DNA of 64,000 nt from a virus. Its lineage: Duplodnaviria; Caudoviricetes. The notes beneath the pieces were generated by a model that saw nothing but the letters and a program-made list of their open reading frames with translations, made no database searches and was not told the origin of the DNA. The stretch is taken from IMG/VR virus record IMGVR_UViG_3300026165_000001, positions 23,356 to 87,355 of that record; one strand, given 5' to 3'. The position numbers and the translations under genes are program-made. Shown here piece after piece: positions 18,058 to 45,805 of this stretch; position 1 is the stretch's first letter, and every line of letters begins with the position of its first letter.

Positions 18058-18891
18058 ATGAGTGAAAATCCACTACAGAAACTATATAGAAACAAGAAAG
18101 TCTATGTTTCATTGCCCAGCGGTGGCAGATTTTATAACTCTGGTGTAAAACTCAGTGCAGACAATGAAATCGGCGTTATGCCCATGACTGCCACTGACGA
18201 AATCAAACTCAAAACTCCTGATGCTCTGTTCAACGGCGAAGCCCTATACGAACTATTCAAGAGCTGTGTGCCAGATATCGAAAATCCACGTGAAATACCA
18301 GTGTGTGATATCGACAAATTATTGCTTGCAATTCGCATGGCAACCAGTGGTTCAACATTGGAGATAAAATCCACTTGCCCTAAATGCAAACACATAGAAA
18401 AATATGATGTTGACCTAGGCGTAATCATGAACAGTGCACAAGAAATCACTGAAGACAACGCTGTAACATTGGATGACGACATCATTGTTGAAACCCGTCC
18501 ACTCACACTACAAAGTCAAATCATGGCACAAATGGATTCATTTTATCAATACCGTATGCAGCAAATGATCAATGACGATAGTGTGCCAGACGAACAAAAG
18601 GCTAAAGAGTTTAATGAAATACTAGTCCAAGCCATCACACTTCAAACAGGACAAGTTGCCAGTTGTATTACAAAGGTGACATTGGACGAAGACACTCAAG
18701 TAACCGATAGTGAACACATTTTTGAGTGGGTAGAAAACATGGATAGTCATACTCATAGAAAAATTAAAGATTGTATTGAAAAATTGAGCGATCCAAAAAT
18801 GAGTGATAGTGTTACCATCAAATGCAGTCAAGAAGAATGTGGTCATGAATACAAAGCAAACATTGACCTAAATCCAGTAAATTTTTTCTAG
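18058..18891 (+). CDS. gp26: Baseplate hub / tail assembly chaperone (T4 gp26-like)
   Basis: VSLPSGG.FY, MTA.DEI, D..LLAIR.AT.G, two Cys pairs (CPKC, CSQEEC), ends NFF. Confidence 0.75.
   Translation: MSENPLQKLYRNKKVYVSLPSGGRFYNSGVKLSADNEIGVMPMTATDEIKLKTPDALFNGEALYELFKSCVPDIENPREIPVCDIDKLLLAIRMATSGSTLEIKSTCPKCKHIEKYDVDLGVIMNSAQEITEDNAVTLDDDIIVETRPLTLQSQIMAQMDSFYQYRMQQMINDDSVPDEQKAKEFNEILVQAITLQTGQVASCITKVTLDEDTQVTDSEHIFEWVENMDSHTHRKIKDCIEKLSDPKMSDSVTIKCSQEECGHEYKANIDLNPVNFF
18882..18888 (+). other. Putative -1 programmed ribosomal frameshift site T TTT TTC
   Basis: X XXY YYZ heptamer immediately before TAG; the -1 frame reads LATAIH into ATG 18906 with no stop. Confidence 0.7.
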
Positions 18892-18905
18892 CCACCGCCA
18901 TACAC

Positions 18906-19121
18906 ATGACTCCTGGTGAATTAAGACAATACATTCACGATATGGAGGTGGAGGTAGAACGACTGGAGGAATACGTATTTGATATAGCACTCTTTAGTGA
19001 GGGTGCGATATCTGTTAGTGAACTCCTAGGTATGCCCATGCCCAAAATACGAAAATTCGAAGAACGCCTAAGCGAAAAAGTCAAAGCAGAAGCTGGCAAG
19101 AAGGGAACCGAGTATCTCTAA
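18906..19121 (+). CDS. Tail chaperone C-terminal extension, probably expressed as a frameshift fusion
   Basis: 71-aa ORF with no SD upstream (CCACCGCCATACAC); in the -1 frame of gp26. Confidence 0.7.
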   Translation: MTPGELRQYIHDMEVEVERLEEYVFDIALFSEGAISVSELLGMPMPKIRKFEERLSEKVKAEAGKKGTEYL

Positions 19122-19130
19122 TCAACTCAG

Positions 19131-19253
19131 ACGGTTGTCAACCGTATATTTCCATCCACTCCACTCTATTATAGTGATGCTTCGCATCACTAGCTGATTC
19201 GCATATCTCATCTCCATTCGCTTCGCTCATTTCGATTCGATCTGCTTTCAGCA
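19131..19253. repeat. Cluster of inverted repeats and GAA-loop mini-hairpins
   Basis: ACGGTTG-T-CAACCGT (19131-19145); TAGTGATGC-TTC-GCATCACTA (19172-19192); GCTTCGC (= GCGAAGC on -) at 19179 and 19220; TGCT-TTC-AGCA (19243-19253); six TTCG copies in 60 bp. Confidence 0.8.
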
Positions 19254-19313
19254 TTTCTTATCGTGTTTTACTATGTCGAATTGTCATTCCATTTTGATTT
19301 GAATGTTTTGAAT

Positions 19314-19693
19314 CTATTAGGCATTTCCCAGAACCAATAGCCACACTTTGCCCGATGAGGCAAAGTGTGGCTATGGCAGACGTTTCCCGTCACCAACCCA
19401 GCAAGCTGGGCCACTCCGTTCCAAAACAACCTTGTATAGCCAGGGAAGGGCGGTTGAGCGATACCCTTTTATGTTTAGCTTTTCAACGCGGGACCACATC
19501 ATGCTGTTAACGGCTTACACGATGCTGCCTGTGGGTTCCAAGCGTGTGAGGAGAGCCCACTCATTTCTCAGGTGTCAATCTGAGTGCGTATATGACTGCG
19601 ACATGCCAGATCTGTTGCCGAAAATTTGTTTACGGCTCCTCAAGGCATTCATTGAGGTCGCTATGGTCAGGGTTCTGAGGTTGGTCCTAATAA
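19314..19693 (-). ncRNA. Candidate large structured ncRNA (~380 nt)
   Basis: End-to-end closing stems, at least 8 internal helices including a 16-bp perfect stem (19337-19352/19359-19374); G-U pairs favour the minus strand. Confidence 0.7.
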
Positions 19694-19700
19694 GCCTATA

Positions 19701-20210
19701 TTAGTTGTGAGCACTTTCAAAGGCAGCTCTATTGAGTTCAAAGAAACTATCAAATTCTGTTAGTTTCCAAACAACTCCTTCCTGGTCCGTGTAGACAACG
19801 TGTCTGTTGGTTTTGAATGGCAACGTAGCATCAAATCCAACAAACTTACCTACACGGGTAATTTTCATAAAAAGAATATTAATGTCATCATCGTCCGCAG
19901 CATCTTTGATTTGCTGCAACCAATCTTCGAGAATAGGGATCGGCTCGTTGAATAGTAATCTATGGAACGGAAAACTTGCGTAGTTTTTACATTCACAGTT
20001 AAATCGATTCCAATGATCAGGCGGAACAATGTCGCCCTTCATGTGACGTATCTGCCCATCACTCATGAGAATTTTACGGTCGGCATTGCTGCCACCTGTA
20101 TAAGCCCCACTGTTGGGGACGCGCATGAATGGCGCGCCATAAGTCTCTGTCAAGTATTTGGCGACATCACGTTCCCACGCGCCGCCCTTGGCTTTGCTTT
20201 TACTGGTCAA
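19701..20210 (-). CDS. Holliday junction resolvase-like PD-(D/E)xK nuclease
   Basis: SKSKAKGGAWERDVAKYL..RVPNSGA..GDIVP..ECKNY; TTG start overlapping the upstream TGA. Confidence 0.8.
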   Translation of the reverse strand: MTSKSKAKGGAWERDVAKYLTETYGAPFMRVPNSGAYTGGSNADRKILMSDGQIRHMKGDIVPPDHWNRFNCECKNYASFPFHRLLFNEPIPILEDWLQQIKDAADDDDINILFMKITRVGKFVGFDATLPFKTNRHVVYTDQEGVVWKLTEFDSFFELNRAAFESAHN

Positions 20211-20425
20211 AGGTCTTTAATCATCTCTGCTAGCCCCGCTCCGACATTTCGTGATTTACTATTAAATCCTGTGATGTCAGAACCAAAGTCATATGTCATG
20301 CTGGGTAATGTATATGTTGATATCGTGGTGTCTATAGTGCTGGTATCAACACCACTATACGGCCTATTAGGATCATCGTAGACTATTCCGCCGTTGTATG
20401 AATATGGGTGTGTGTTATAATTCAT
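20207..20425 (-). CDS. Hypothetical protein
   Basis: 72 aa, SD GGAG, coupled to neighbours; ends GAGLAEMIKDL. Confidence 0.6.
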   Translation of the reverse strand: MNYNTHPYSYNGGIVYDDPNRPYSGVDTSTIDTTISTYTLPSMTYDFGSDITGFNSKSRNVGAGLAEMIKDL

Positions 20426-34669: not shown

Positions 34670-34678
34670 GGTAAATTG

Positions 34679-37600
34679 ATGGCAAAAGATTATAGCGCCA
34701 ACCCAAAAGACGTAAAAAACTTCACACAAGGGGCTGAAGTTGGACTGGATCAAAGCTTTCAGGACTATAGTGAGTTTCTGCCCTTTATCAATAGAACAGA
34801 ATCACTTGAGCGTTTCTTTGGCAGCACTGTCAATCAACTTCTAAGTTCTGGATCAACTCAGAGTATTGACGCATACTGGGGTCGGCTTGCAGGAAGAAAC
34901 TATAACCCAAATAACGAACTCTTTCAGTTTGAGCCTGATGCCACACGTCTTAACTATCAATTCCAGCCTGGCACAGTGAGCCGTGTTGAAGGCCAAACTG
35001 AACAAACTGTTAGTTACATCAATTGGCTCAAGCGTCTCGAAAGTCTTGGTGCTGATATTAATAACCATGATCGACTTTTCAGTGAGCTGGGATATGTGCT
35101 AGACTTGCCAATTAATGCAGATATGTTGATGAATTATCGCAATTATTATTGGTTAGAAGGACAAATACCAACAATTGTAATTGAACCCACAGTTGACGAT
35201 CCAATTGTCATTGATGATATCGTTAAGTTTTCATTCTATACAACTCCAGAATTGTCAAACTACAAGACTGTTGAGTTTGTGACTGGTTTGCGTGTTAAAT
35301 TCACAGGCGATTATGTTTCAAGTACGAGCGGAGATTATTTTGCTGATTATACATATTCAGTTGAAAATGTGGGCGGTGAAGGAGGAATTAAACTTGTGCC
35401 AGTTATTGATGATACTGGTGACAATCTATTCCCGAGCACCACTCCTTATGAGATAGAAATCCGCGAAGGCTGGGATATATTTGATTATGATACAACACCA
35501 TTCGATGGCATCGCGCCATTCGATCCATACGACGTCACAACTAATCGTGATCGTGAAGATCTAAATCTTAACACTACATATATTGTAATGGAACGTTGGG
35601 CAGCCGATAAAAATCCTTGGGCCAGAACAAACAAGTGGTATAGCCTACATGCAATTGACATCATGGCAGAGTATAATGGCGTTAATGTTGAGGCATATAA
35701 AAACGCCTTTACCCGCGCCAATAGACCAATTATTGAATTCCGTGCAAACATGGAGCTCACAAACTTTTGTGGTAATTTTGCTGGCACAGTTGATTACGCA
35801 GTAAGCATCGACCAAGCAAGCCAAATTGGAGACTCAGGCGGATCTTTCCAAGTCGATAGTGAAAACTCATTGGAAGATGGCGATGTTATTTTTGTTGGTA
35901 AACCAGAAACAAATGGTATCCAGCTTGTTGAATTTAATCAAGACTTCAACAGTGACTTCGACAGCGGCCCAGCACTGAGCGGCGCGTTTGGTCCTCCATA
36001 TAGCAGCGCATTTGACGTTGGTGTGGCAATTACATTGAATCAAAACGCATACCAAGTCAGTATTGTTAGTAATACAATTACATTGACGCCACTTTCACCA
36101 TATAATGACGGCGATTATGTGATTGTCACTAAGGGAGAACAAAAAGGATTTGTCTATTGCTTTACAGAGGCTGATGGTTGGCAAGTCGCACAAAATAAAG
36201 AATCACGAGGTGATTTCCCGCTATTCAAGCTATATGATGACGAACTAATTGATCTTGAAAGTTACGAAAATACAGACTTTGTTGGTGAAAAGATCTTTGG
36301 ATATCGAGAAAATCCAACAGGCGGATTTGATCGTGAACTAGGATTTAGTCCATCATTTACGCAGCAAGGATCATTTAACGATTATGAATTTGAATGGACA
36401 CTTAGCACAAACCGTTATAGTCGTGATGTAACAGTGGACAATTCAACTGAAATTCGTGGATACTATTTCTGGCGAGATCGAGTTGAAAACAAATATTATA
36501 ATGGATGGACACAAGTCCGTGGTGGACAGCGTGTTCCTATTATCCAAACACAAGTCGCCGACGGAACAAACCAGCCTACATTTGAACTAGGAACAACAGC
36601 AGTCAGTCATCCCACTGAATACACTGTGGTTTTCCAGGACGATGAATATCGTTGGCACGAACACAGTTATATTGATCGTCATCCTATCGGTGAACCAAAT
36701 CCAACAATGGTTTGGCGCTATGATACTGATTACAATATCAATACGTTGATTGAAAACTCTAGCGATTCCTTGGAGTTTGTGCGAGCAATTTCTTATGCTT
36801 CAGATACTGTTTCCAGTATTACTTTAGCTAGTGCAACACCGGTTGAGATCACAGTTGCAGATACATCACAGCTAAAGACTGGTGACCGTGCCACATTTAC
36901 AAATGTAACAGGAACAACCGAACTCAATGGGAATACTTATGAAATCACAGTTGTTAACTCAACTACATTTACACTAGATGGAACAGATGGTGATGATTTC
37001 AGTGCTTATGTAAGTGATGGCGACATTACATATGGTGATGGAGATATCACTGTTACTGTAACAGATGATCTAAACACAACTGTAAATGTATCCAGCAGCT
37101 ATGTATATGGAAAGATATTGTATCGCAATACTAATGATTCAACCATTCAGGGAGAGATTTTCCTTTCTGATGAAAATCAAAATAGATACTCTGTAATTCG
37201 CAATGGTCGTTATCTCGTAGAAGATGTTGATTACGCATTTAGTGGCACAACAATTACCGTGACTGCGGAATGCAGTGAGGACGATGTTCTTGAACTAATT
37301 TATATTGCTGATGCAGATCTAGAAAATGTTGTTTATGATGTGGCTCCTATTCACTTCTACAATAACGATAACAAACCATTCACGTTTGTGGGTTATGACG
37401 ATCTAACAAATCACTTTGCACGACAAATGTCTGCAATGCCAGGATTTGATGGTGATGTATTTGGCATTAACAACTACCATAACACGGTGCGACAGCATTC
37501 ATATGACGGCTTGATTAGACAGCAAATCTTCTCAAGCAAGCGTGTGCAATATCTAATAGATCAAGAGTCTATTAATCCAGTTCGTGCACTCAAAAATATT

Positions 37601-40600
37601 TCACGTGATTATGCTGATTTCAAGAAATACTTTATTAATAAAGTTCGACAATTGTGGAATACAAATGAATGGTCAACTGTTAGAGAATTGGTTGACCGAG
37701 CAATTTCTGACATCAATATTGGAAAAAGCGACGAATTCAAATATGCACATAGTGACATGGCATATGCTAAACAATTCAGAAGCATTGAACACACAATAAC
37801 AAATAGCGATACTGAATATGCTATGCCCAGTGTGGTTAACGTTTATAATGATCGACAAAACCATATACAAGTCTGGCTAAAGGAATATGATTCAGTGACA
37901 AGCCAGTTCATTGAACGTCCGTTGGTCAAGGATATTGATTATACAATTAACGGTCCAAATATTGTTTTGACCAGCCCGGCTGAATTTAGTGGTAATGTTG
38001 TAAACAGTTCAGATAATGTTGTAAACAGTTCAGACAATGTCATTGTTGGTGAACCAACCGGTGGACCAGCAACTCTTACCATACGTTGGTATAGTGTAAA
38101 TCAACTGAGTCATATTCCGCCAAGTGCAGTCAAACTAGGATTCTTCCGTCCAACACAAATTGAATTTACAGATGGTGTATTGATTGGACATGACGGAAGT
38201 CGTTATACTGCAACAAACACAGATATCACCAACACAAAAAGTGTTGACTTTGATGTTGTCGCGGCTGCACTATACGATTATGAGTTGCGAGTATTCAATA
38301 ACTTGGTTGATGGACACTTCCTAAGCGATACACAATACAATTATGAAATGGGGGAATTTTATCCAAACCCTGATGGCGAGTTTGCTTATGATGTATCAGA
38401 TATCAATGATCGACTCGATGACTGGTATAACCGTTGGGCTATCCGCAACAGCGTAACTGAAATTGACACGGTTGCTTATGATGCTGGTGATGAATTTACT
38501 TGGAATTACAGCACGGTTGGTCCTGAACTGGGTAGCTGGCGCAGCATATACACTTATTACTTTGGAACAGATCGCCCACACACACATCCTTGGGAGATGC
38601 TCGGACACCGCATCAAGCCTACATGGTGGGATGCAACTTATAGTTGGACGGCGGGACCTTTGCGTGATGCATTGATTTCAGCCTTGAAGTTCGGCAAAAC
38701 AGGAGACACAAGCGGTCCTGATAAGATTGATTTGCGTTATGCTCGTAGCAGCTATGATTGGGACGATGAAACCCTGGTCAGTGATGATGGTTCAGCAACC
38801 TTAAATGGTCCTGACACCGCAGGCGTTGTTAGCACACCAGCGAGTATTGATGCTGCACGTGATTTTGTTTTTGGTGATTGGAGTGAAACAGAGGATAGAT
38901 GGCGTAAGAGTAGTGAATATCTTTTTGCGCTTGCTGAAGTCTATTTGCAACTCAAGCCATACAGGACACACGAGCTATTTTGGTTCCTACATCGTTACAA
39001 TATTAATCGCAACGTAACACAAGAACAGTGGGTCAATATTGATTATTGTATTCGTGCATATAATCAAGAATTGCACAACCAAAAAGTCAAAGACGGTGTT
39101 ATCGCTAGTATACGTGTCGTTAATGGCGGAACAGGATATACATTCCTTGATCTTGAATTTGAACAAGGACCCATTTGTTATCGTATTGCTGAAGCACAAG
39201 CCTATACATCTGCAGGACGTGTGGTGGCTGTAGCAGTTACAGATCCAGGACGAGGCTTTGCTAGTGATCCAGTGGTCAATTTGAATGGTCCTCCAAGCGG
39301 TTCCGGTGTTGAGTTAGAGTATGTTATTATTTCTGATCTATACTTCACACACCTAGGATTCAACACTCTTCCAGCAGAAGAATATGTAGTGGTAAATCCA
39401 GACTCAACAGACCTAGCTGAACGACTTGATGGCCTTGATATCAATTACATGCTACATGTTGGAGGATTTACTGACAAGCGCATACTTGCTATTGAGTTGG
39501 ATGGTGATTATGATAGTGGTGTTGTTCGTATTCCAGAAACAAGCTACGACATTCTAATTGATCGCAATGCTCCAATCAAAACAGCATTTTATTCAGGTGT
39601 TCGAATCGATAAAGAGGACGTTGGTTACCGCGTGAGTGGTTACGATCTTGATAGTGAATTCTTCAATTATCTTCTGCCATCAACAGCAGGCAAACAGATA
39701 AGTGTTGATATTGGAAATACTGAGGTTGTGAAACATCTCAACTGGAGAAACGAGGTAGCACGAATTCCTTACAATACAGTGCTCCTCAAGCGCCAAGAAC
39801 TGTATCAGTTCTTGCTGGGACTTGGCAAATACTATGAAAGCATTGGTTTTGATGCATATACACAATGGGAAGTGGAAGCCAGAGCAGCGATTGAATGGGC
39901 ATTGGGAACCGACACTGATCCTTTCTATGTGAATGGTATTAATGATACAATCAGTTATCATCAAGGAACACGTGGCGTTGTGCAAACAATCGACGTCAAT
40001 TACGATGGTGTGCCCAACTTGCTTGATCAAAATTTTAAGAATATTCGACGCAATGAAACACTTGTTTTGAGAGATAATGATAAAACTGAAATCTCAATCA
40101 AGAACGGCGAAGATAGAATTTATGGTCTAGGTGTTCGTGTTATTGAATTTGAACACATCATTACCATTGATAATGTTACATCATTCAATGACGAATTTTA
40201 TATTCCTGAGTTGGGTGTTGGTCAAAACCGTGTCCGCCTAGTAGGCGAAAGAACAAGAAATTGGAACGGTCGTGTTGAGGCGGTTGGATACCTTGTGCAA
40301 GATACAGGACTTGTTCTCAATATAGAAAGCAGCGTTCGTGAGCTTGAACAGGACTGGATGACATCTGACAGTAAAGCACTTGAGCGTTTGACACGTCAAA
40401 CTCGTGGATACAATGTTGGATATTCAAAACCAACATACATGACCAATACTTTTGTTAGCGACCGTTCAGGTTATGCGTTTGAAAAGGGTTTGAGAAAATA
40501 CCGCGGCACTGCTAGCGCAATCGAAGCCATGACCAGGAACAAGAACATTTTTGGTCAAGAATTTGAGCATGAACTATATGAAAACTGGATGGTAAGACTG

Positions 40601-43600
40601 GGAGATTTTGGTGACGTTAGTGAACGCAACCCGATTGAATTCCAAGTTGATCAAAACAAAATCAAAGATGACCCACAGCATTTCCGTTTTTCAGAGAGTT
40701 TTGTTAGTGATAAATCCAGTGACTTGATAATTGATATCAGCAAAGGATCAACTGATGCAATAAATGGTGATTATTCATCACCATTTGGAGTTTATGATGT
40801 ATTGCCACTAGATAATAGCAGCATTGAAAATCTTAAAGATTACCAGACATTTCTGCGTGATGCTGGATTGCCTGTTGTTCAAGAAATAGATTATTTCCTA
40901 GACTCTATTGACAATATTGGAGATATCTATGACCCAACACAACCATATGCGTTGATTCCAAATTGGAGTGAGACATCATCATATGTTGAAGGTGATTTGG
41001 TCCGCCGCTTCGGTAAAGTATACAGCTTGCTTGTTGAATCAACAGGTTTAACAACACTCAATGATGACATCATTGTTCGTGGTAACCAAGTATTCCCGCT
41101 TGTGCCAAATGGATCAACATTTATTGCGAACGGAGAAACTGTCACATTCAACAAGGCAGACGAAAGTGTATCATTTGATACAATCACAGTTGATGGCACA
41201 CAAACCAATCCAAGCATTCCGTCAGGAACAACTCTTGTTATTGATGGTATCAATGTTGACTTTGTTAAAAACGCTACCACAACAACCTATAGTGATATTG
41301 TTTTGGAAGGAAATGTAACGTCTCCAACAATACAGAACAGCGCATCACGTGAGTTGAGAATTGGTTACGCCAACAGTGCGACGGCACCTCTAACATACAT
41401 CACAGTAGCCTTCGACGAGCTTGAAGACACGCTTACCATGCAAACCATTCTCATTGATGCATTTACAGAAGCCGGACTTGCTGATCCTATTGGTGCAAGT
41501 GTAACCTACCTAACCACTCTCGAGGCTCTGCGTAGTGCGTATGTTGCCGCAGAAAGCGTTGCGTCATGGGAAACCATCATTGATAACTTTTATGATGCTA
41601 CAGGAACACCTGATCGTTTCTTGAACCCTGAATACTGGCCAACAGTGCTAGGATTTACTGGGGCAAGTTGGGAAACAGAGGCACGTGATATGATTCAAGT
41701 CGACCTTGATCTAATTGATGAGTTGGGCGGCAGCACTGCGGCAACTGTGGCAACAATTGTTGATGGCACTGCGGTGATTGATACTGAGCGTGATGCAGCA
41801 AACAACCTTCTTGATTTTGGTGTTACCCCAAATGATGAAAACGAAAACCTAGCAGATTTCACACTCTACTTGGAAAATAACGGAGGTGTAACAATTGCTA
41901 CAGGTCAGGAAATCACTGTTACCAACCCCAAGAACTATGTTGAAGATAACCTTGTGGCAATTGCAAATAAGATTTCAACAGCACTTACAGCCGCGCCAAG
42001 TGGTATTAATGTGTCAACAGCAGGTAACCGTATTACACTAAGCCGAACTGGAAACCAAGCTGGTTATCGGTTTGGAGTTACTACAGATGTAGCTCTTGGA
42101 TTTACTGATGCTGATAATGACGTTCAGACTTCAGGAACAACCACCAGTGGTCCTGTTCCTCTAACATTAAATGAAGCCGTCCAGACAGTTAACCAGTTCA
42201 GTATTACCGGAGTCACAGCGCAAAATGTCAGTGACCGTATGCGCCTATTAAGCACAAACGAAGAATTAACGATTGGATCAGGAACAGCAAACGGTGTCCT
42301 AGGATTTACACCAGGATCAACGCCTGCTACATCAAATACAACCAATGTTCCAGTGGATCTATCCATTGGCGATGTTGTAAGTCAAATCAATCAAGCAGAA
42401 ATTGATGATTTAACTGCCAGCCAGGTCGAAGGTGCGCTGGTTCTACGTTATACAGGTGAAACATTGATAATTGGCGATGGAACAGCCAACGATGAACTAG
42501 GCCTTGCAGCGCAAACATATGAATCATTGTCAGACGCAGTTCAAAACATTTTTGATCCGGCAGATTGGGCAGTCATAGCTGACCCAGCACACTTTAATAT
42601 CTGGACAATTGATAATATTGGCAGTGATCCTCTTGGACCAAGCGGAACAAATCGTTATGATGTTTACCAAACACTAGACTTCCAAATTGGAGTTCTAGAG
42701 ATTTGTGCCGGCGAAGAAAATGGCGACGATGCTTACATCAAGTGTGATACACCACATACATTGTCAGCTGGTGAGTTTGTGATGATTGTCAACTCAACCA
42801 CTGTGCCAAGTGTTGATGGTATTCATGTTGTTACGGGTATTCAAGACGATCAAGGCTTCTACATCGACCGTTATATCGAACAAAAAGGATTTACAGGAAA
42901 AGTATTCCCAATACGCTCAGTTCGGTTCCCAGACTCTTTTGTTGCCGCCGCGGCAATGACTGATGAAAATTATGTCCAGGGTAGCCTAGGACTACGTGTT
43001 GGTGATTACATTTATGCTGATACTCGTTTGGATATCAATAGCAATAGCTTAGGTTATGGCGCTGTATATGATGTAAAAAGAACTACTGAGGGCGCAGGGT
43101 TGCGTTTTGTTCGTAGAGAAGTAGGAAAAACCAATAACAGTGAAATCAAAAACGGAATCTTGTATAGTAATACAACTGGCGAAACTGTGATTCGTTATGA
43201 AGTATTCGATCCTCTAAAAGGAATCATTCCTGGTATTGCTGAAGCTGAAATTGATTTGCGTAGCGATGTTGATTTTGCATATTACAATAACAGCACTGAT
43301 CCAAATGTTGAAGTTAGAACTGACAATGTCTGGGGACAGCGTCAAATAGGAACAGTTTGGTGGGATTTGAGCAATGCAATTTATCTCAACTATGATCAAA
43401 TCAATCCGGAATATCGCCAGGAGTTCTGGGGACAGCTATTCCCATCAGGCACAATTGATGTTTATGAATGGACTAAGAGTCCTGTAACTCCAGATGAATA
43501 TGCCGATGCAGTGAATGCAGGAACAGTGATTGATGGCACTGAATTGACAGGATTGCCATATTCCTTTGTGGATCAATTTGGTGAAGAACAATATAGTTGG

Positions 43601-45805
43601 TGTGAAGAAGTTGAATTCAATAAAACTACTAACCAACTTGAGACATACTTCTATTTCTGGGTTAAGAACAAGACAACCACCCCAAATATTGAAAGAGAAT
43701 ACTCAGTAATACAGCTAGCACAAATCATTGAAGATCCATCAACACAACAGATTGATTGGATTGCTGCATCCAGCGATAACACTCTATTGGTTAGTAGTCT
43801 ATCACGTGCTACAGGTTATGATGATTTGGTCATGCAGGTCAATTTTGACAACAATAGTAGCGAGTATCACCAAGAATTTGCGTTGCTCGCTGAAGGCGAT
43901 CCAGCAACCGTAATTCCTGAATGGTTGCATATCAGCCTGCGTGATAGTTTGGCTGGATTCACACAGGACACAGAAATATCTGAATTCTCACCTTGGGATT
44001 CAAGCTTTAGTTATGTGCGAGGTCAAGTTGTGCAAAGCACACTTGGAGATTTCTTCCGCTGCACAAATCCATCTACCAATAATGATCCAGACACAGATGA
44101 AAACAACGAGTATTGGGAGAAACTGGAAGCAAGAACAATCGAACCTGATGGTGAATTTAACGGCGTAAGTCAGGTTGAATTGAATGTTCCCAATAACATT
44201 CCAGATCTTGATTTGCATCCGTATGTTCGTTATGGATTGGAAACACGCCCACATCAAATTTGGTTCCGTGATATCGACTACGCTCGTGAAGTATTGATTG
44301 ACAAGATTAATGATCAGTTAAGTGAAGTAAATCTTTCTGACAGTGACTTGCCTTGGCGCGATGAATTTGAGCGTAGCTTTACAGTTGGCGGCCAGACATA
44401 TAACATCAAGGATTATTGGCAATTTGCTGATTGGTCAATTGATGGAACAATTATTGAAAAGGGTGACGGAGATTATTTTGTAGAACTAGATCTTGATTTG
44501 CCAACGATTAGCAATCCTCAAGAAGGCGAAATAGCTCAGGTTACACGAAGTTTTGATGTAGATAGACGTCAACGTCGTGAAGTATTCCGTTACACAAATG
44601 GCGAATGGCAATTGATTTTCAAGGAAAGAGGAACGATACAATTCAATGATTTGCTTTGGAATTCAGATATTTCCAATTTCGGTTGGGATGTGGCATCATG
44701 GGATGTAATTGGATGGGACAAAAATTCAAGTGCAGTTGCAGTTGAGATTTTTGAAAGCTTTTTCCGTAAAATCTGGATTGGTGAGTATCGACGATATTAT
44801 ACTGATCTCTGGTTCCACATGGCCAAGCACGTATTGCGTGAACAGGAAGAAGTTGATTGGCTCTTTAAGACAAGTTATTTCGATCTAATCATGGAGGATA
44901 ACCTAGAAAAGCGTTATAACAAGTTCTTTGATCAAAATACAGATGACTTCTTTGACTTTGTCAACACAGTCAAGCCATTCCGCAGCAAAATACTTGATGG
45001 AATTGTGCGTGAAACTGTGAGTGAAGAGCTAGAATTGACAACCGAAAACACAGTTGAAATCCGTGTCCAAACTAACCCTCTAGATGATACAGTGGATGAA
45101 ACAGATACTCGTGCATTCCGTTTGTCAGTTAACCGTAATGAACTGAACTACTCAAGTCAAATTATCAACAGCAATAAAGTATTGCTTGGTCTTGATATTG
45201 GCCCAGATGATACTGTCATTCCATACCTCAATACCAGCAATACGACATTGTCAGCTGGACCTGGTGTAATTTGGATCAATGGAGAAAGAATAACTTACCA
45301 GTCAATTGTTACTAATGATGATCTAGGCGGAATTGGTTCAGGTTTTACCAGTGGATTTGATCTGGGATTCAGTGGTGTAACATTGCTCACCGGCGTTGAA
45401 CGTGGCACTCAAGGCACATTTGCTAGAGGACATAGCTTTGCTGATATCATTGAGGATGCAACTGGTCTTGAGCTCACTGAAAATACCACACTGAGTGATT
45501 ACACATTCACATTGACTCCGGCTTGGAACACCCTTGGTGAGGGACTTCTTAGTGGTTCCAACCTTGATACTAATGGTGTAACAATTCAAGGAAATAATTT
45601 TGGAACAATTGATGCATATGGCGATATTTGGTTGGCACAGTTGTTGGCGTTGCAGAACACAGCAAATGCAATTCAAGAGTTTCAAGACGAACTTCAGGAG
45701 TTCATACATGTTTATTGGGCACAGATCTTGCAGATTGCTAATGGAAGCAGCACATTGATTACGGCTGATAGCACTGATGTAACCGCAGATGGCAGTGTGT
45801 CATGA
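34679..45805 (+). CDS. Giant baseplate wedge protein (gp7-like, ~3708 aa)
   Basis: Follows gp6; single 11-kb ORF; C-terminal VKPFRSK motif; inserted FCCH-like and GxGY domains; ATG 34679 preferred over TTG 34676. Confidence 0.75.
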   Translation: MAKDYSANPKDVKNFTQGAEVGLDQSFQDYSEFLPFINRTESLERFFGSTVNQLLSSGSTQSIDAYWGRLAGRNYNPNNELFQFEPDATRLNYQFQPGTVSRVEGQTEQTVSYINWLKRLESLGADINNHDRLFSELGYVLDLPINADMLMNYRNYYWLEGQIPTIVIEPTVDDPIVIDDIVKFSFYTTPELSNYKTVEFVTGLRVKFTGDYVSSTSGDYFADYTYSVENVGGEGGIKLVPVIDDTGDNLFPSTTPYEIEIREGWDIFDYDTTPFDGIAPFDPYDVTTNRDREDLNLNTTYIVMERWAADKNPWARTNKWYSLHAIDIMAEYNGVNVEAYKNAFTRANRPIIEFRANMELTNFCGNFAGTVDYAVSIDQASQIGDSGGSFQVDSENSLEDGDVIFVGKPETNGIQLVEFNQDFNSDFDSGPALSGAFGPPYSSAFDVGVAITLNQNAYQVSIVSNTITLTPLSPYNDGDYVIVTKGEQKGFVYCFTEADGWQVAQNKESRGDFPLFKLYDDELIDLESYENTDFVGEKIFGYRENPTGGFDRELGFSPSFTQQGSFNDYEFEWTLSTNRYSRDVTVDNSTEIRGYYFWRDRVENKYYNGWTQVRGGQRVPIIQTQVADGTNQPTFELGTTAVSHPTEYTVVFQDDEYRWHEHSYIDRHPIGEPNPTMVWRYDTDYNINTLIENSSDSLEFVRAISYASDTVSSITLASATPVEITVADTSQLKTGDRATFTNVTGTTELNGNTYEITVVNSTTFTLDGTDGDDFSAYVSDGDITYGDGDITVTVTDDLNTTVNVSSSYVYGKILYRNTNDSTIQGEIFLSDENQNRYSVIRNGRYLVEDVDYAFSGTTITVTAECSEDDVLELIYIADADLENVVYDVAPIHFYNNDNKPFTFVGYDDLTNHFARQMSAMPGFDGDVFGINNYHNTVRQHSYDGLIRQQIFSSKRVQYLIDQESINPVRALKNISRDYADFKKYFINKVRQLWNTNEWSTVRELVDRAISDINIGKSDEFKYAHSDMAYAKQFRSIEHTITNSDTEYAMPSVVNVYNDRQNHIQVWLKEYDSVTSQFIERPLVKDIDYTINGPNIVLTSPAEFSGNVVNSSDNVVNSSDNVIVGEPTGGPATLTIRWYSVNQLSHIPPSAVKLGFFRPTQIEFTDGVLIGHDGSRYTATNTDITNTKSVDFDVVAAALYDYELRVFNNLVDGHFLSDTQYNYEMGEFYPNPDGEFAYDVSDINDRLDDWYNRWAIRNSVTEIDTVAYDAGDEFTWNYSTVGPELGSWRSIYTYYFGTDRPHTHPWEMLGHRIKPTWWDATYSWTAGPLRDALISALKFGKTGDTSGPDKIDLRYARSSYDWDDETLVSDDGSATLNGPDTAGVVSTPASIDAARDFVFGDWSETEDRWRKSSEYLFALAEVYLQLKPYRTHELFWFLHRYNINRNVTQEQWVNIDYCIRAYNQELHNQKVKDGVIASIRVVNGGTGYTFLDLEFEQGPICYRIAEAQAYTSAGRVVAVAVTDPGRGFASDPVVNLNGPPSGSGVELEYVIISDLYFTHLGFNTLPAEEYVVVNPDSTDLAERLDGLDINYMLHVGGFTDKRILAIELDGDYDSGVVRIPETSYDILIDRNAPIKTAFYSGVRIDKEDVGYRVSGYDLDSEFFNYLLPSTAGKQISVDIGNTEVVKHLNWRNEVARIPYNTVLLKRQELYQFLLGLGKYYESIGFDAYTQWEVEARAAIEWALGTDTDPFYVNGINDTISYHQGTRGVVQTIDVNYDGVPNLLDQNFKNIRRNETLVLRDNDKTEISIKNGEDRIYGLGVRVIEFEHIITIDNVTSFNDEFYIPELGVGQNRVRLVGERTRNWNGRVEAVGYLVQDTGLVLNIESSVRELEQDWMTSDSKALERLTRQTRGYNVGYSKPTYMTNTFVSDRSGYAFEKGLRKYRGTASAIEAMTRNKNIFGQEFEHELYENWMVRLGDFGDVSERNPIEFQVDQNKIKDDPQHFRFSESFVSDKSSDLIIDISKGSTDAINGDYSSPFGVYDVLPLDNSSIENLKDYQTFLRDAGLPVVQEIDYFLDSIDNIGDIYDPTQPYALIPNWSETSSYVEGDLVRRFGKVYSLLVESTGLTTLNDDIIVRGNQVFPLVPNGSTFIANGETVTFNKADESVSFDTITVDGTQTNPSIPSGTTLVIDGINVDFVKNATTTTYSDIVLEGNVTSPTIQNSASRELRIGYANSATAPLTYITVAFDELEDTLTMQTILIDAFTEAGLADPIGASVTYLTTLEALRSAYVAAESVASWETIIDNFYDATGTPDRFLNPEYWPTVLGFTGASWETEARDMIQVDLDLIDELGGSTAATVATIVDGTAVIDTERDAANNLLDFGVTPNDENENLADFTLYLENNGGVTIATGQEITVTNPKNYVEDNLVAIANKISTALTAAPSGINVSTAGNRITLSRTGNQAGYRFGVTTDVALGFTDADNDVQTSGTTTSGPVPLTLNEAVQTVNQFSITGVTAQNVSDRMRLLSTNEELTIGSGTANGVLGFTPGSTPATSNTTNVPVDLSIGDVVSQINQAEIDDLTASQVEGALVLRYTGETLIIGDGTANDELGLAAQTYESLSDAVQNIFDPADWAVIADPAHFNIWTIDNIGSDPLGPSGTNRYDVYQTLDFQIGVLEICAGEENGDDAYIKCDTPHTLSAGEFVMIVNSTTVPSVDGIHVVTGIQDDQGFYIDRYIEQKGFTGKVFPIRSVRFPDSFVAAAAMTDENYVQGSLGLRVGDYIYADTRLDINSNSLGYGAVYDVKRTTEGAGLRFVRREVGKTNNSEIKNGILYSNTTGETVIRYEVFDPLKGIIPGIAEAEIDLRSDVDFAYYNNSTDPNVEVRTDNVWGQRQIGTVWWDLSNAIYLNYDQINPEYRQEFWGQLFPSGTIDVYEWTKSPVTPDEYADAVNAGTVIDGTELTGLPYSFVDQFGEEQYSWCEEVEFNKTTNQLETYFYFWVKNKTTTPNIEREYSVIQLAQIIEDPSTQQIDWIAASSDNTLLVSSLSRATGYDDLVMQVNFDNNSSEYHQEFALLAEGDPATVIPEWLHISLRDSLAGFTQDTEISEFSPWDSSFSYVRGQVVQSTLGDFFRCTNPSTNNDPDTDENNEYWEKLEARTIEPDGEFNGVSQVELNVPNNIPDLDLHPYVRYGLETRPHQIWFRDIDYAREVLIDKINDQLSEVNLSDSDLPWRDEFERSFTVGGQTYNIKDYWQFADWSIDGTIIEKGDGDYFVELDLDLPTISNPQEGEIAQVTRSFDVDRRQRREVFRYTNGEWQLIFKERGTIQFNDLLWNSDISNFGWDVASWDVIGWDKNSSAVAVEIFESFFRKIWIGEYRRYYTDLWFHMAKHVLREQEEVDWLFKTSYFDLIMEDNLEKRYNKFFDQNTDDFFDFVNTVKPFRSKILDGIVRETVSEELELTTENTVEIRVQTNPLDDTVDETDTRAFRLSVNRNELNYSSQIINSNKVLLGLDIGPDDTVIPYLNTSNTTLSAGPGVIWINGERITYQSIVTNDDLGGIGSGFTSGFDLGFSGVTLLTGVERGTQGTFARGHSFADIIEDATGLELTENTTLSDYTFTLTPAWNTLGEGLLSGSNLDTNGVTIQGNNFGTIDAYGDIWLAQLLALQNTANAIQEFQDELQEFIHVYWAQILQIANGSSTLITADSTDVTADGSVS
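37993..38034 (+). repeat. Perfect 21-bp tandem duplication (NVVNSSD x2)
   Basis: TAATGTTGTAAACAGTTCAGA twice, plus a partial third copy. Confidence 0.95.

Follow-up and report, generated by a model that had tools for sequence, protein, structure and literature searches.

A previously uncatalogued large structured RNA of T4-like phages, located beside recombination nuclease genes

Introduction

Few large RNAs have intricate, conserved folds, and to our knowledge those that are well understood are nearly all ribozymes, the cores of ribonucleoproteins, or recently solved cage-forming RNAs. In large functional RNAs, a fixed core is commonly surrounded by outer domains that can be exchanged. GOLLD and ROOL are RNAs of ~580–800 nt that are associated with tRNA genes. 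These two RNAs and OLE are reported to form homo-oligomeric complexes (PMC12286853). The RNA described here, from a 64-kb stretch of phage DNA that we refer to as the window, resembles GOLLD and ROOL in being a large, phage-borne, many-helix and pseudoknotted RNA that came from comparative analysis and has no known function. It differs from them in its length of ~390 nt, in having no covariance-model match at E ≤ 10, in coming from a window without tRNA genes, in its fixed position after recombination-nuclease genes and in carrying twin words that co-vary.

The ColE1 RNA II and the T4 ori(uvsY) and ori(34) transcripts form a persistent hybrid with DNA, and their folds are far simpler than that of the present RNA. 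T4 ori(uvsY) adjoins genes 25 and 26. The present RNA is similar to these systems in that it would be a transcript of several hundred nucleotides upstream of an AT-rich stretch, and similar to ori(uvsY) in that it lies beside a gp26-type baseplate gene and recombination genes. However, it has no sequence relation to these primers, and the GC skew does not turn at its locus.

The guide RNAs of IscB (HEARO or omega RNA) and TnpB (reRNA) are likewise large RNAs encoded on the same strand as an adjacent small nuclease gene, with short lineage-specific words. The nucleases at the present locus, in contrast, are of the PDDEXK or GIY-YIG type and not RuvC/HNH, and the RNA persists with either nuclease family or with a gene in between. 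It also has no transposon end and no match to the models of these guide RNAs, and its words are 5–9 nt long and present twice.

Our approach resembles that of the Fremin-type catalogue of csRNAs, which also drew on IMG/VR intergenic regions and on covariation evidence; as its main text describes them, the candidate structured RNAs are 29–151 bases long and comprise 8,495 entries (PMC10690425). That main text has no baseplate, jumbo or GIY-YIG contexts and does not describe the whole multi-domain RNA, although fragments of it may be among the entries. The RNA was not described in the main-text literature searched, including PMC10690425, 10.64898/2026.09.22.753630 and PMC7318152.

Results

Genomic Context

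The window comes from an 87-kb IMG/VR virus record with a CheckV completeness of 24%. The sequencing runs containing the whole stretch were labelled soil metagenome, and most of these may be the source sample; none of them was recorded as RNA. Four runs labelled RNA-Seq were probably DNA, and the contigs of relatives in them covered conserved pieces only.

The element of interest occupies a gap (19122–19700) between two convergent genes, one at 18906–19121 (+) and the other a nuclease gene (Table 1). Relatives of this PDDEXK_15 nuclease are annotated in some isolates as a Holliday-junction resolvase. Based on the Rad50-like protein, the closest isolates were jumbo phages, namely PA5oct (49.7% identity), followed by Phosso and Atu_ph07. 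The cumulative GC-skew minimum was at ~24–26 kb, which is where gene orientation diverges (minus-strand genes to 25238 and plus-strand genes from 25375).

Two other features of the window were observed. A single ORF of 3709 aa is located at 34676–45805 (+). The heptamer GCGNAGC was enriched (31 copies versus 14.3 expected; 0/100 shuffles reached 31), and its copy at 19179–19185 was the only one within a long intergenic stem. We rejected this heptamer as a general terminator, as the other three long-stem cases fall inside ORFs.

Evidence for a Selected RNA Fold

The minus strand of the 380-nt region initially described folded at −138.3 kcal/mol, compared to −112.8 ± 5.4 kcal/mol for 100 dinucleotide shuffles (z −4.74, none as good), and the plus strand of the same 380 nt had a z of −3.48. 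Because folding energy alone is weak evidence, relatives were collected, with the nuclease protein as query, giving 80 IMG/VR loci. Searches of these loci with the gap sequence (nhmmer) identified a homologous stretch in 28 of the 80, and in 35 after one iteration, always directly after the nuclease gene and on its strand. RNAalifold of 15 sequences predicted 59 pairs, 38 of which had changes on both sides.

A covariance model, R1, was then based on a nested structure written for 18 seed sequences over the most conserved 158 nt (window 19568–19411), and has 155 positions and 32 pairs. R1 matched 48 of the 80 loci and the window at E ≤ 2.7e-6, on the strand of the nuclease gene and just downstream of it, and six more loci weakly. 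The window itself matched at 121.7 bits (E 1.8e-28), by construction since it was one of the 18 seeds. In the R1 alignment of 36 distinct sequences, 92.2% of base-pair cells were paired versus 65.3% in shuffles (0/500 as high), and pairing fell to 36–48% when the 3' partners were slid by 1–3 columns; these pair counts come from alignments that were fitted to the model, which favours the structure. Among the same sequences, compensatory changes on both sides were seen in 30 of the 32 pairs. The 14 distinct full-length rows that were not seeds paired at 391 of 428 cells (91.4%), and 13 of these had only 50–60% identity to any seed row. The crossing interactions, that is, the pseudoknot and the kissing pairs, had a covariation score of 0.283 compared to 0.136 in shuffles (0/500).

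In relatives, four positions of the conserved 16-bp stem were U-G or G-U pairs, consistent with the earlier claim that G-U pairs work on the minus strand only. Because relatives carry such pairs, this 3' hairpin has been selected as RNA and not as a DNA cruciform. Together, these data showed that window 19704–19314 (−) encodes a structured RNA whose fold is under selection. Covariation across ~95 IMG/VR contigs, together with the strand-specific G-U pairs, lends strong support to the proposal of a large phage non-coding RNA encoded by the minus strand.

Eight of the eleven helices in the preliminary description held in relatives; two end-closing helices and CCUCAA/UUGAGG did not. All five pairs of GUGGG/CCCAC covaried (99% paired), as did all six of AAGGGU/GCCCUU, and the suggested loop-loop contact between GUUGA and UCAAC was 85% paired, with G-C, A-U and G-U variants. 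The GCAUCGUG/CAUGAUG helix was weaker, being 60–70% paired in columns not fitted to it. The GCGAC/GUCGC, GCCG/CGGC and CCCAG/CUGGG helices were supported in four close relatives, and the positions of the 16-bp stem were each paired in 9–15 of 15 sequences. The CUCAG/CUGAG helix could be read off the sequences, but counts of its pairs in a MAFFT alignment were 3, 6, 1, 13 and 2 of 15. Pairing of the ends of the RNA with each other was not conserved: the terminal UUAUUAGG/CCUAAUAG helix was paired in 2–7 of 15 sequences, with only the window and its nearest relative keeping it, and CUCAGAACC/GGUUCUGGG was paired in 3–14 of 15, mostly at the low end. CCUCAA/UUGAGG was specific to the window, and the conserved pairing at its location is GCC/GGC, present in 15/15 sequences. 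The long-range P3 helix and the twin words flanking the 16-bp stem had been absent from the initial list of features.

Anatomy of the RNA

The fold comprises a 5' domain that varies between lineages, a compact core, and a 3' domain around a sequence-conserved hairpin (Table 1). Conservation extends from the leader word to a few bases beyond the second twin-word copy, where it fades.

Table 1. Coordinates of the RNA element, its parts and associated genes (window positions unless a relative's contig, L, is given).
Feature	Position	Strand	Remarks
T4-type baseplate hub protein	18058–18891	+	Pfam T4_baseplate, E 1.9e-20
Rad50/SbcC-like protein, 590 aa	20650–22422	−	
PDDEXK_15 nuclease, 169 aa, upstream of RNA	19701–20210	−	Pfam PF24608, E 2.5e-24, full-length match
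Whole conserved RNA element, ~390 nt	19314–19704	−	nhmmer and covariance-model matches in relatives, same strand
Invariant leader word CUAAUAUAGGC	19694–19704	−	Overlaps nuclease stop codon
5' domain	19567–19693	−	Invariant unpaired CCUUGA
5' domain helix UGAC/GUCA	19669–66 with 19596–93	−	
5' domain helix GCGAC/GUCGC	19661–57 with 19602–598	−	Both sides change in L003 and L004
5' domain helix GCC/GGC	19646–44 with 19607–05	−	15/15 paired, G-C to A-U changes
5' domain helix GCCG/CGGC	19636–33 with 19620–17	−	
5' domain helix CUCAG/CUGAG	19584–80 with 19571–67	−	
Conserved core, model R1	19411–19568	−	
P1	19560–56 with 19535–31; inner 19552–50 with 19539–37	−	Conserved GCUCU internal loop
P2 (GCAUCGUG/CAUGAUG)	19524–18 with 19503–497	−	
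P3, long-range	19513–09 with 19420–16, plus 19506–04 with 19424–22	−	All 9 pairs covary
P4	19489–88 with 19479–78	−	
P5	19468–63 with 19451–46	−	
P4/P5 loop kiss	19487–83 with 19457–53	−	
P6	19444–42 with 19432–30	−	
Variable hairpin CCCAG-CUUG-CUGGG	19397–19410	−	Both arms vary in 4 close relatives; deleted in the others
Small hairpin GAC-GGGAAAC-GUC	19379–19391	−	Twin-word copy 1 in loop
Conserved 16-bp hairpin	19337–19374	−	3' arm keeps AAGU(G/A)UGA
3' tail UCUGGGAAAU	19323–19332	−	Twin-word copy 2
Long imperfect hairpin, GAGCGAAGCGAA tip	19252–19193	−	3' of AT-rich spacer
Hairpin UAGUGAUGC-GAA-GCAUCACUA	19192–19172	−	3' of long imperfect hairpin
GIY-YIG nuclease genes	L107:12147–12596, L086:3742–4197, L092:1983–2462, L131:1216–1650, L143:4927–5376, L144:3671–4096, L117:989–1423		
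Downstream ORF, ~150 aa	L107:11034–11486, L143:6028–6465, L117:2020–2457, L035:4069–4515 and others		39–88% mutual identity

The leader word was invariant at 9 of 11 positions in the 15-sequence alignment, with the consensus CUAAnAnAGGC. In two relatives, the interval from the nuclease stop codon to the RNA contains a tandem array of 11-nt period (L032:3569–3627 and L065:3545–3617, of 5.4 and 6.5 copies); the last array unit is the invariant CTAAnAnAGGC word, of which the window has a single unit. We rejected the leader word as a general promoter, as it was unique in the window (2 matches at ≤1 mismatch versus 2.3 expected).

The 5' domain has at least two unrelated forms, other lineages carrying a different, larger one. 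The features that identify the core are P1, the H-type pseudoknot formed by P2 and P3, the kissing P4 and P5 loops, P6, and the invariant GCUCU and GGUA..GC..AACCGCC-type motifs. We also observed a third subtype (L069:3470–4150 and L074:3450–4100; also L058, L059, L062 and L066), which has the same 5' domain and P1 and a much longer core, where a GCGUUGC...GCAACCGG motif pair replaces the standard kissing loops. This subtype matched R1 weakly (E 0.011–0.16).

By eye, a GAC/GUC-type closure around the loop carrying the lineage's word recurs in several relatives. The RNA is followed by an AT-rich, non-conserved spacer (window ~19313–19253) and then by two very stable tandem hairpins (fold z −3.73). 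These hairpins (19172–19252) have GNRA- or GNA-type loops, and the same two hairpin types follow the RNA in the lineages inspected; they may mark the end of the transcript. A stretch of 28 nt at 19169–19196 was identical in contigs of relatives from other samples.

Comparison to Known RNA Families

No matches were identified in the whole window at the gathering thresholds of Rfam 15 (4227 models), which agreed with the initial statement that the element could not be assigned to tRNA, tmRNA, RNase P or intron RNAs and answered its call for an Rfam search. At E ≤ 10, window 19000–19900 had seven chance-level matches, all ≤17 bits versus thresholds of 40–440. Seven diverse family members (59,098 bases) had none at E ≤ 1. 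ARAGORN identified no tRNA or tmRNA genes in the 64-kb window. We rejected RNase P RNA, as there was no Rfam match, and a group I or II intron, as there was again no Rfam match and the element follows the stop codon of an intact 169-aa nuclease ORF. We conclude that, relative to Rfam 15 and the literature searched, this RNA is a previously uncatalogued family of large T4-like phages.

A simple scan of the minus strand at 18800–20300 found no sigma-70-like promoter before the element and no intrinsic terminator. These results are compatible with operon read-through, but are not proof of it. An intrinsic terminator as the sole explanation of the element was rejected, as the 16-bp stem is followed by UGGUUCUGGG and not by a U run.

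Distribution and a Conserved Genomic Slot

A degenerate 19-nt pattern for the P5 loop identified 65 IMG/VR loci, 62 of which matched R1. Fifteen of these 62 contigs were already in the first set by name, giving a total of ~95 distinct contigs besides the window's record. The RNA has so far been restricted to phages. Among at least 120 listed bacterial or archaeal matches to a similar 19-nt core motif, 80 were tested with R1 and none fitted it; we regard these matches as chance, as their number was about that predicted by chance in such a collection.

The element was not detected in several sets of isolate genomes. Blastn of the window element and of the element of L107 against 50,697 phage records gave no match. 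R1 found nothing in the whole records of PA5oct, Phosso, SCTP-2 and Melnitz, or near the nuclease gene of the first three with filters off (best E 0.76). By annotation only, P-HM1, S-SRM01 and phiM12 have no RNA-sized gap after the GIY-YIG gene. The four ncRNAs reported for PA5oct map elsewhere in its genome (PMC7318152). There are gene-poor gaps of 1–1.5 kb by the resolvase gene, near the baseplate hub gene, in PA5oct (L148:2479–3990) and Phosso (L149:2987–4000). These gaps, which have no R1 match, might hold an unrelated or very diverged RNA.

The gene order around the RNA was conserved: the Rad50-like gp46 gene, a small nuclease gene, the RNA, and the baseplate-hub gene gp26. The nuclease gene was not always of the same family. 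A PDDEXK gene was located ≤500 nt upstream in 15 of the 62 motif-found loci and 1.1 kb upstream, with another gene between, in five; 30 had no PDDEXK gene despite upstream room, and 12 were cut by the contig end. In all seven of those 30 loci that were checked, a ~150-aa SegE-type GIY-YIG nuclease was encoded immediately upstream (E 1.5e-32 to 2e-35). Thus, the slot between the Rad50-like gene and the RNA is occupied either by PDDEXK_15 or by a SegE-type GIY-YIG nuclease that is unrelated to it and similar in size, a pattern suggestive of one small domain-only nuclease having replaced another non-homologously. The RNA is therefore linked with the locus and not with one protein, since nucleases of two families can be encoded upstream of it.

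Many relatives also have a conserved ~150-aa ORF directly 3' of the RNA and on the same strand (Table 1), which has the motif CPFARKAR and belongs to no Pfam family. No copy of this ORF was found in the 64-kb window by tblastn.

Twin Words Flank the Conserved 3' Hairpin

In every subtype, two copies of one 5–9-nt word flank the conserved 3' hairpin, copy 1 in a hairpin loop and copy 2 in the single-stranded tail, 59–62 nt apart. The words differ between lineages (at least 15 versions), and both copies change together. The longest word common to both flanks had a mean length of 6.5 nt within one RNA, and reached ≥7 nt in 25 of 45 RNAs. When the two flanks came from different RNAs, the mean was 5.1 nt and words of ≥7 nt occurred in 10.8%, compared to 6.4% for shuffled flanks. 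In several lineages the words were only 5–6 nt, which is close to chance for a single sequence. Two different 9-mers each occurred exactly twice in their own records (61.7 and 22.5 kb), 62 nt apart, with none for the reversed control.

No complement of the twin words was found at a consistent place inside the RNA. The words were not enriched in the window (2 found versus 2.5 expected), or elsewhere in two relative genomes that were 85–91% complete (6 versus 8 for the control, and 7 versus 3), and no phage target for them was found in the window and these two near-complete genomes. As the copies change together and have no internal complement, we think that an outside partner pairs with or binds them.

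Discussion

We propose, with a probability of roughly 0.55, that this locus is a gene for a ~390-nt structured non-coding RNA that acts as a stable trans-acting RNA presenting its twin words to a partner. The trans role is one that we infer from complexity alone, and the position would also suit a cis role, at the end of the operon or at a replication origin. Transcription of the RNA would either begin at the invariant CUAAnAnAGGC word or run through from the gp47-gp46-nuclease operon, with the RNA at its tail end; the product would then accumulate as a stable RNA and act in trans. In this scheme, the role of the core would be that of a rigid scaffold, and the 3' domain would be a working surface that shows the lineage-specific word twice. 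The partner co-evolving with the words could be host or phage nucleic acid, or a dimeric protein.

Of the other explanations, the best placed, although in our estimation still unlikely, is that the locus is a replication origin at which the RNA is a primer or activator, the AT-rich stretch forms a persistent RNA–DNA hybrid, and the words and 11-nt arrays are iterons. Several features are consistent with an origin, including the 11-nt-period direct repeats in relatives (5.4 and 6.5 copies), the lineage-specific direct repeats that flank a conserved hairpin, the AT-rich, non-conserved spacer and two very stable hairpins that follow the RNA, and a position where the recombination genes meet gp26. 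However, in the window the leader unit stands alone, without an array, and the G-U pairs indicate that the 3' hairpin was selected as RNA and not as a DNA cruciform. The primer RNAs of the T4 origins are also not known to us to need an elaborate pseudoknotted fold. In addition, the GC-skew minimum is at ~24–26 kb and not at 19.3 kb, which is a weak test as skew follows gene orientation.

It is improbable, we believe, that the element is a cis-acting structure in the 3' untranslated region at the end of the operon, stopping exonucleases or transcription and setting the level of the gp47-gp46-nuclease message, but having no trans function itself. This reading is favoured by the constant position of the RNA at the 3' end of a gene block on the same strand, by the lack of a promoter-like site ahead of it and by the stable hairpins downstream. 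Nevertheless, an element of ~390 nt that has two tertiary contacts, and in which many unpaired bases are invariant, far exceeds the needs of known 3' stabilisers, and the RNA was kept when the upstream nuclease was of a different family or when a gene for 320–344 aa lay between. The scan of the minus strand at 18800–20300, moreover, revealed no intrinsic terminator.

Still more improbable, in our view, is a ribozyme that cleaves itself or acts on other RNA or DNA, or an RNA that forms part of an enzyme together with the domain-only nuclease encoded next to it. Large ribozymes are brought to mind by the size of the RNA, its pseudoknotted core, its invariant junction bases and its swappable peripheral domains, and the neighbouring gene encodes a small nuclease, of the PDDEXK or the GIY-YIG family. 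That adjacency is not strict, however, no Rfam 15 ribozyme model was matched, and we could name neither a cleavage site nor a substrate.

The RNA could also be an addressing RNA of a new type for phage recombination, although we consider this very doubtful. The twin words would then pair with a nucleic-acid site and the core would recruit the PDDEXK or GIY-YIG nuclease, or the Mre11/Rad50-like gp47/gp46, to make a programmed break or junction. We know of no RNA guidance in the PDDEXK and GIY-YIG nuclease families found here. If true, this break or junction would start recombination-dependent replication or attack a host target, and would represent an RNA-directed use of these nuclease families.

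Finally, the alternative named in the preliminary description, that the plus-strand ORF 19348–19704 (118 aa) is a real gene and the structure incidental, is hardly credible: the frame is open in the window and its three closest relatives, but there was no codon signal in comparisons to those relatives, either in substitutions by codon position (25/29/31, 30/36/34 and 47/42/51, with no periodicity) or in indel runs (11/12, 8/10 and 13/17 of them not multiples of three), the ORF had no Pfam match, no ORF of ≥60 aa occurs there in distant relatives in which the element is retained, and the strong covariation is on the opposite strand.

Conclusions

The favoured reading of a stable trans-acting RNA concerns a molecule that is amenable to in vitro transcription, probing, imaging and assay without culturing the phage. 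An RNA that is widespread in uncultured large phages, fixed beside their recombination machinery and equipped with a co-evolving pair of words is a candidate for new RNA biochemistry.
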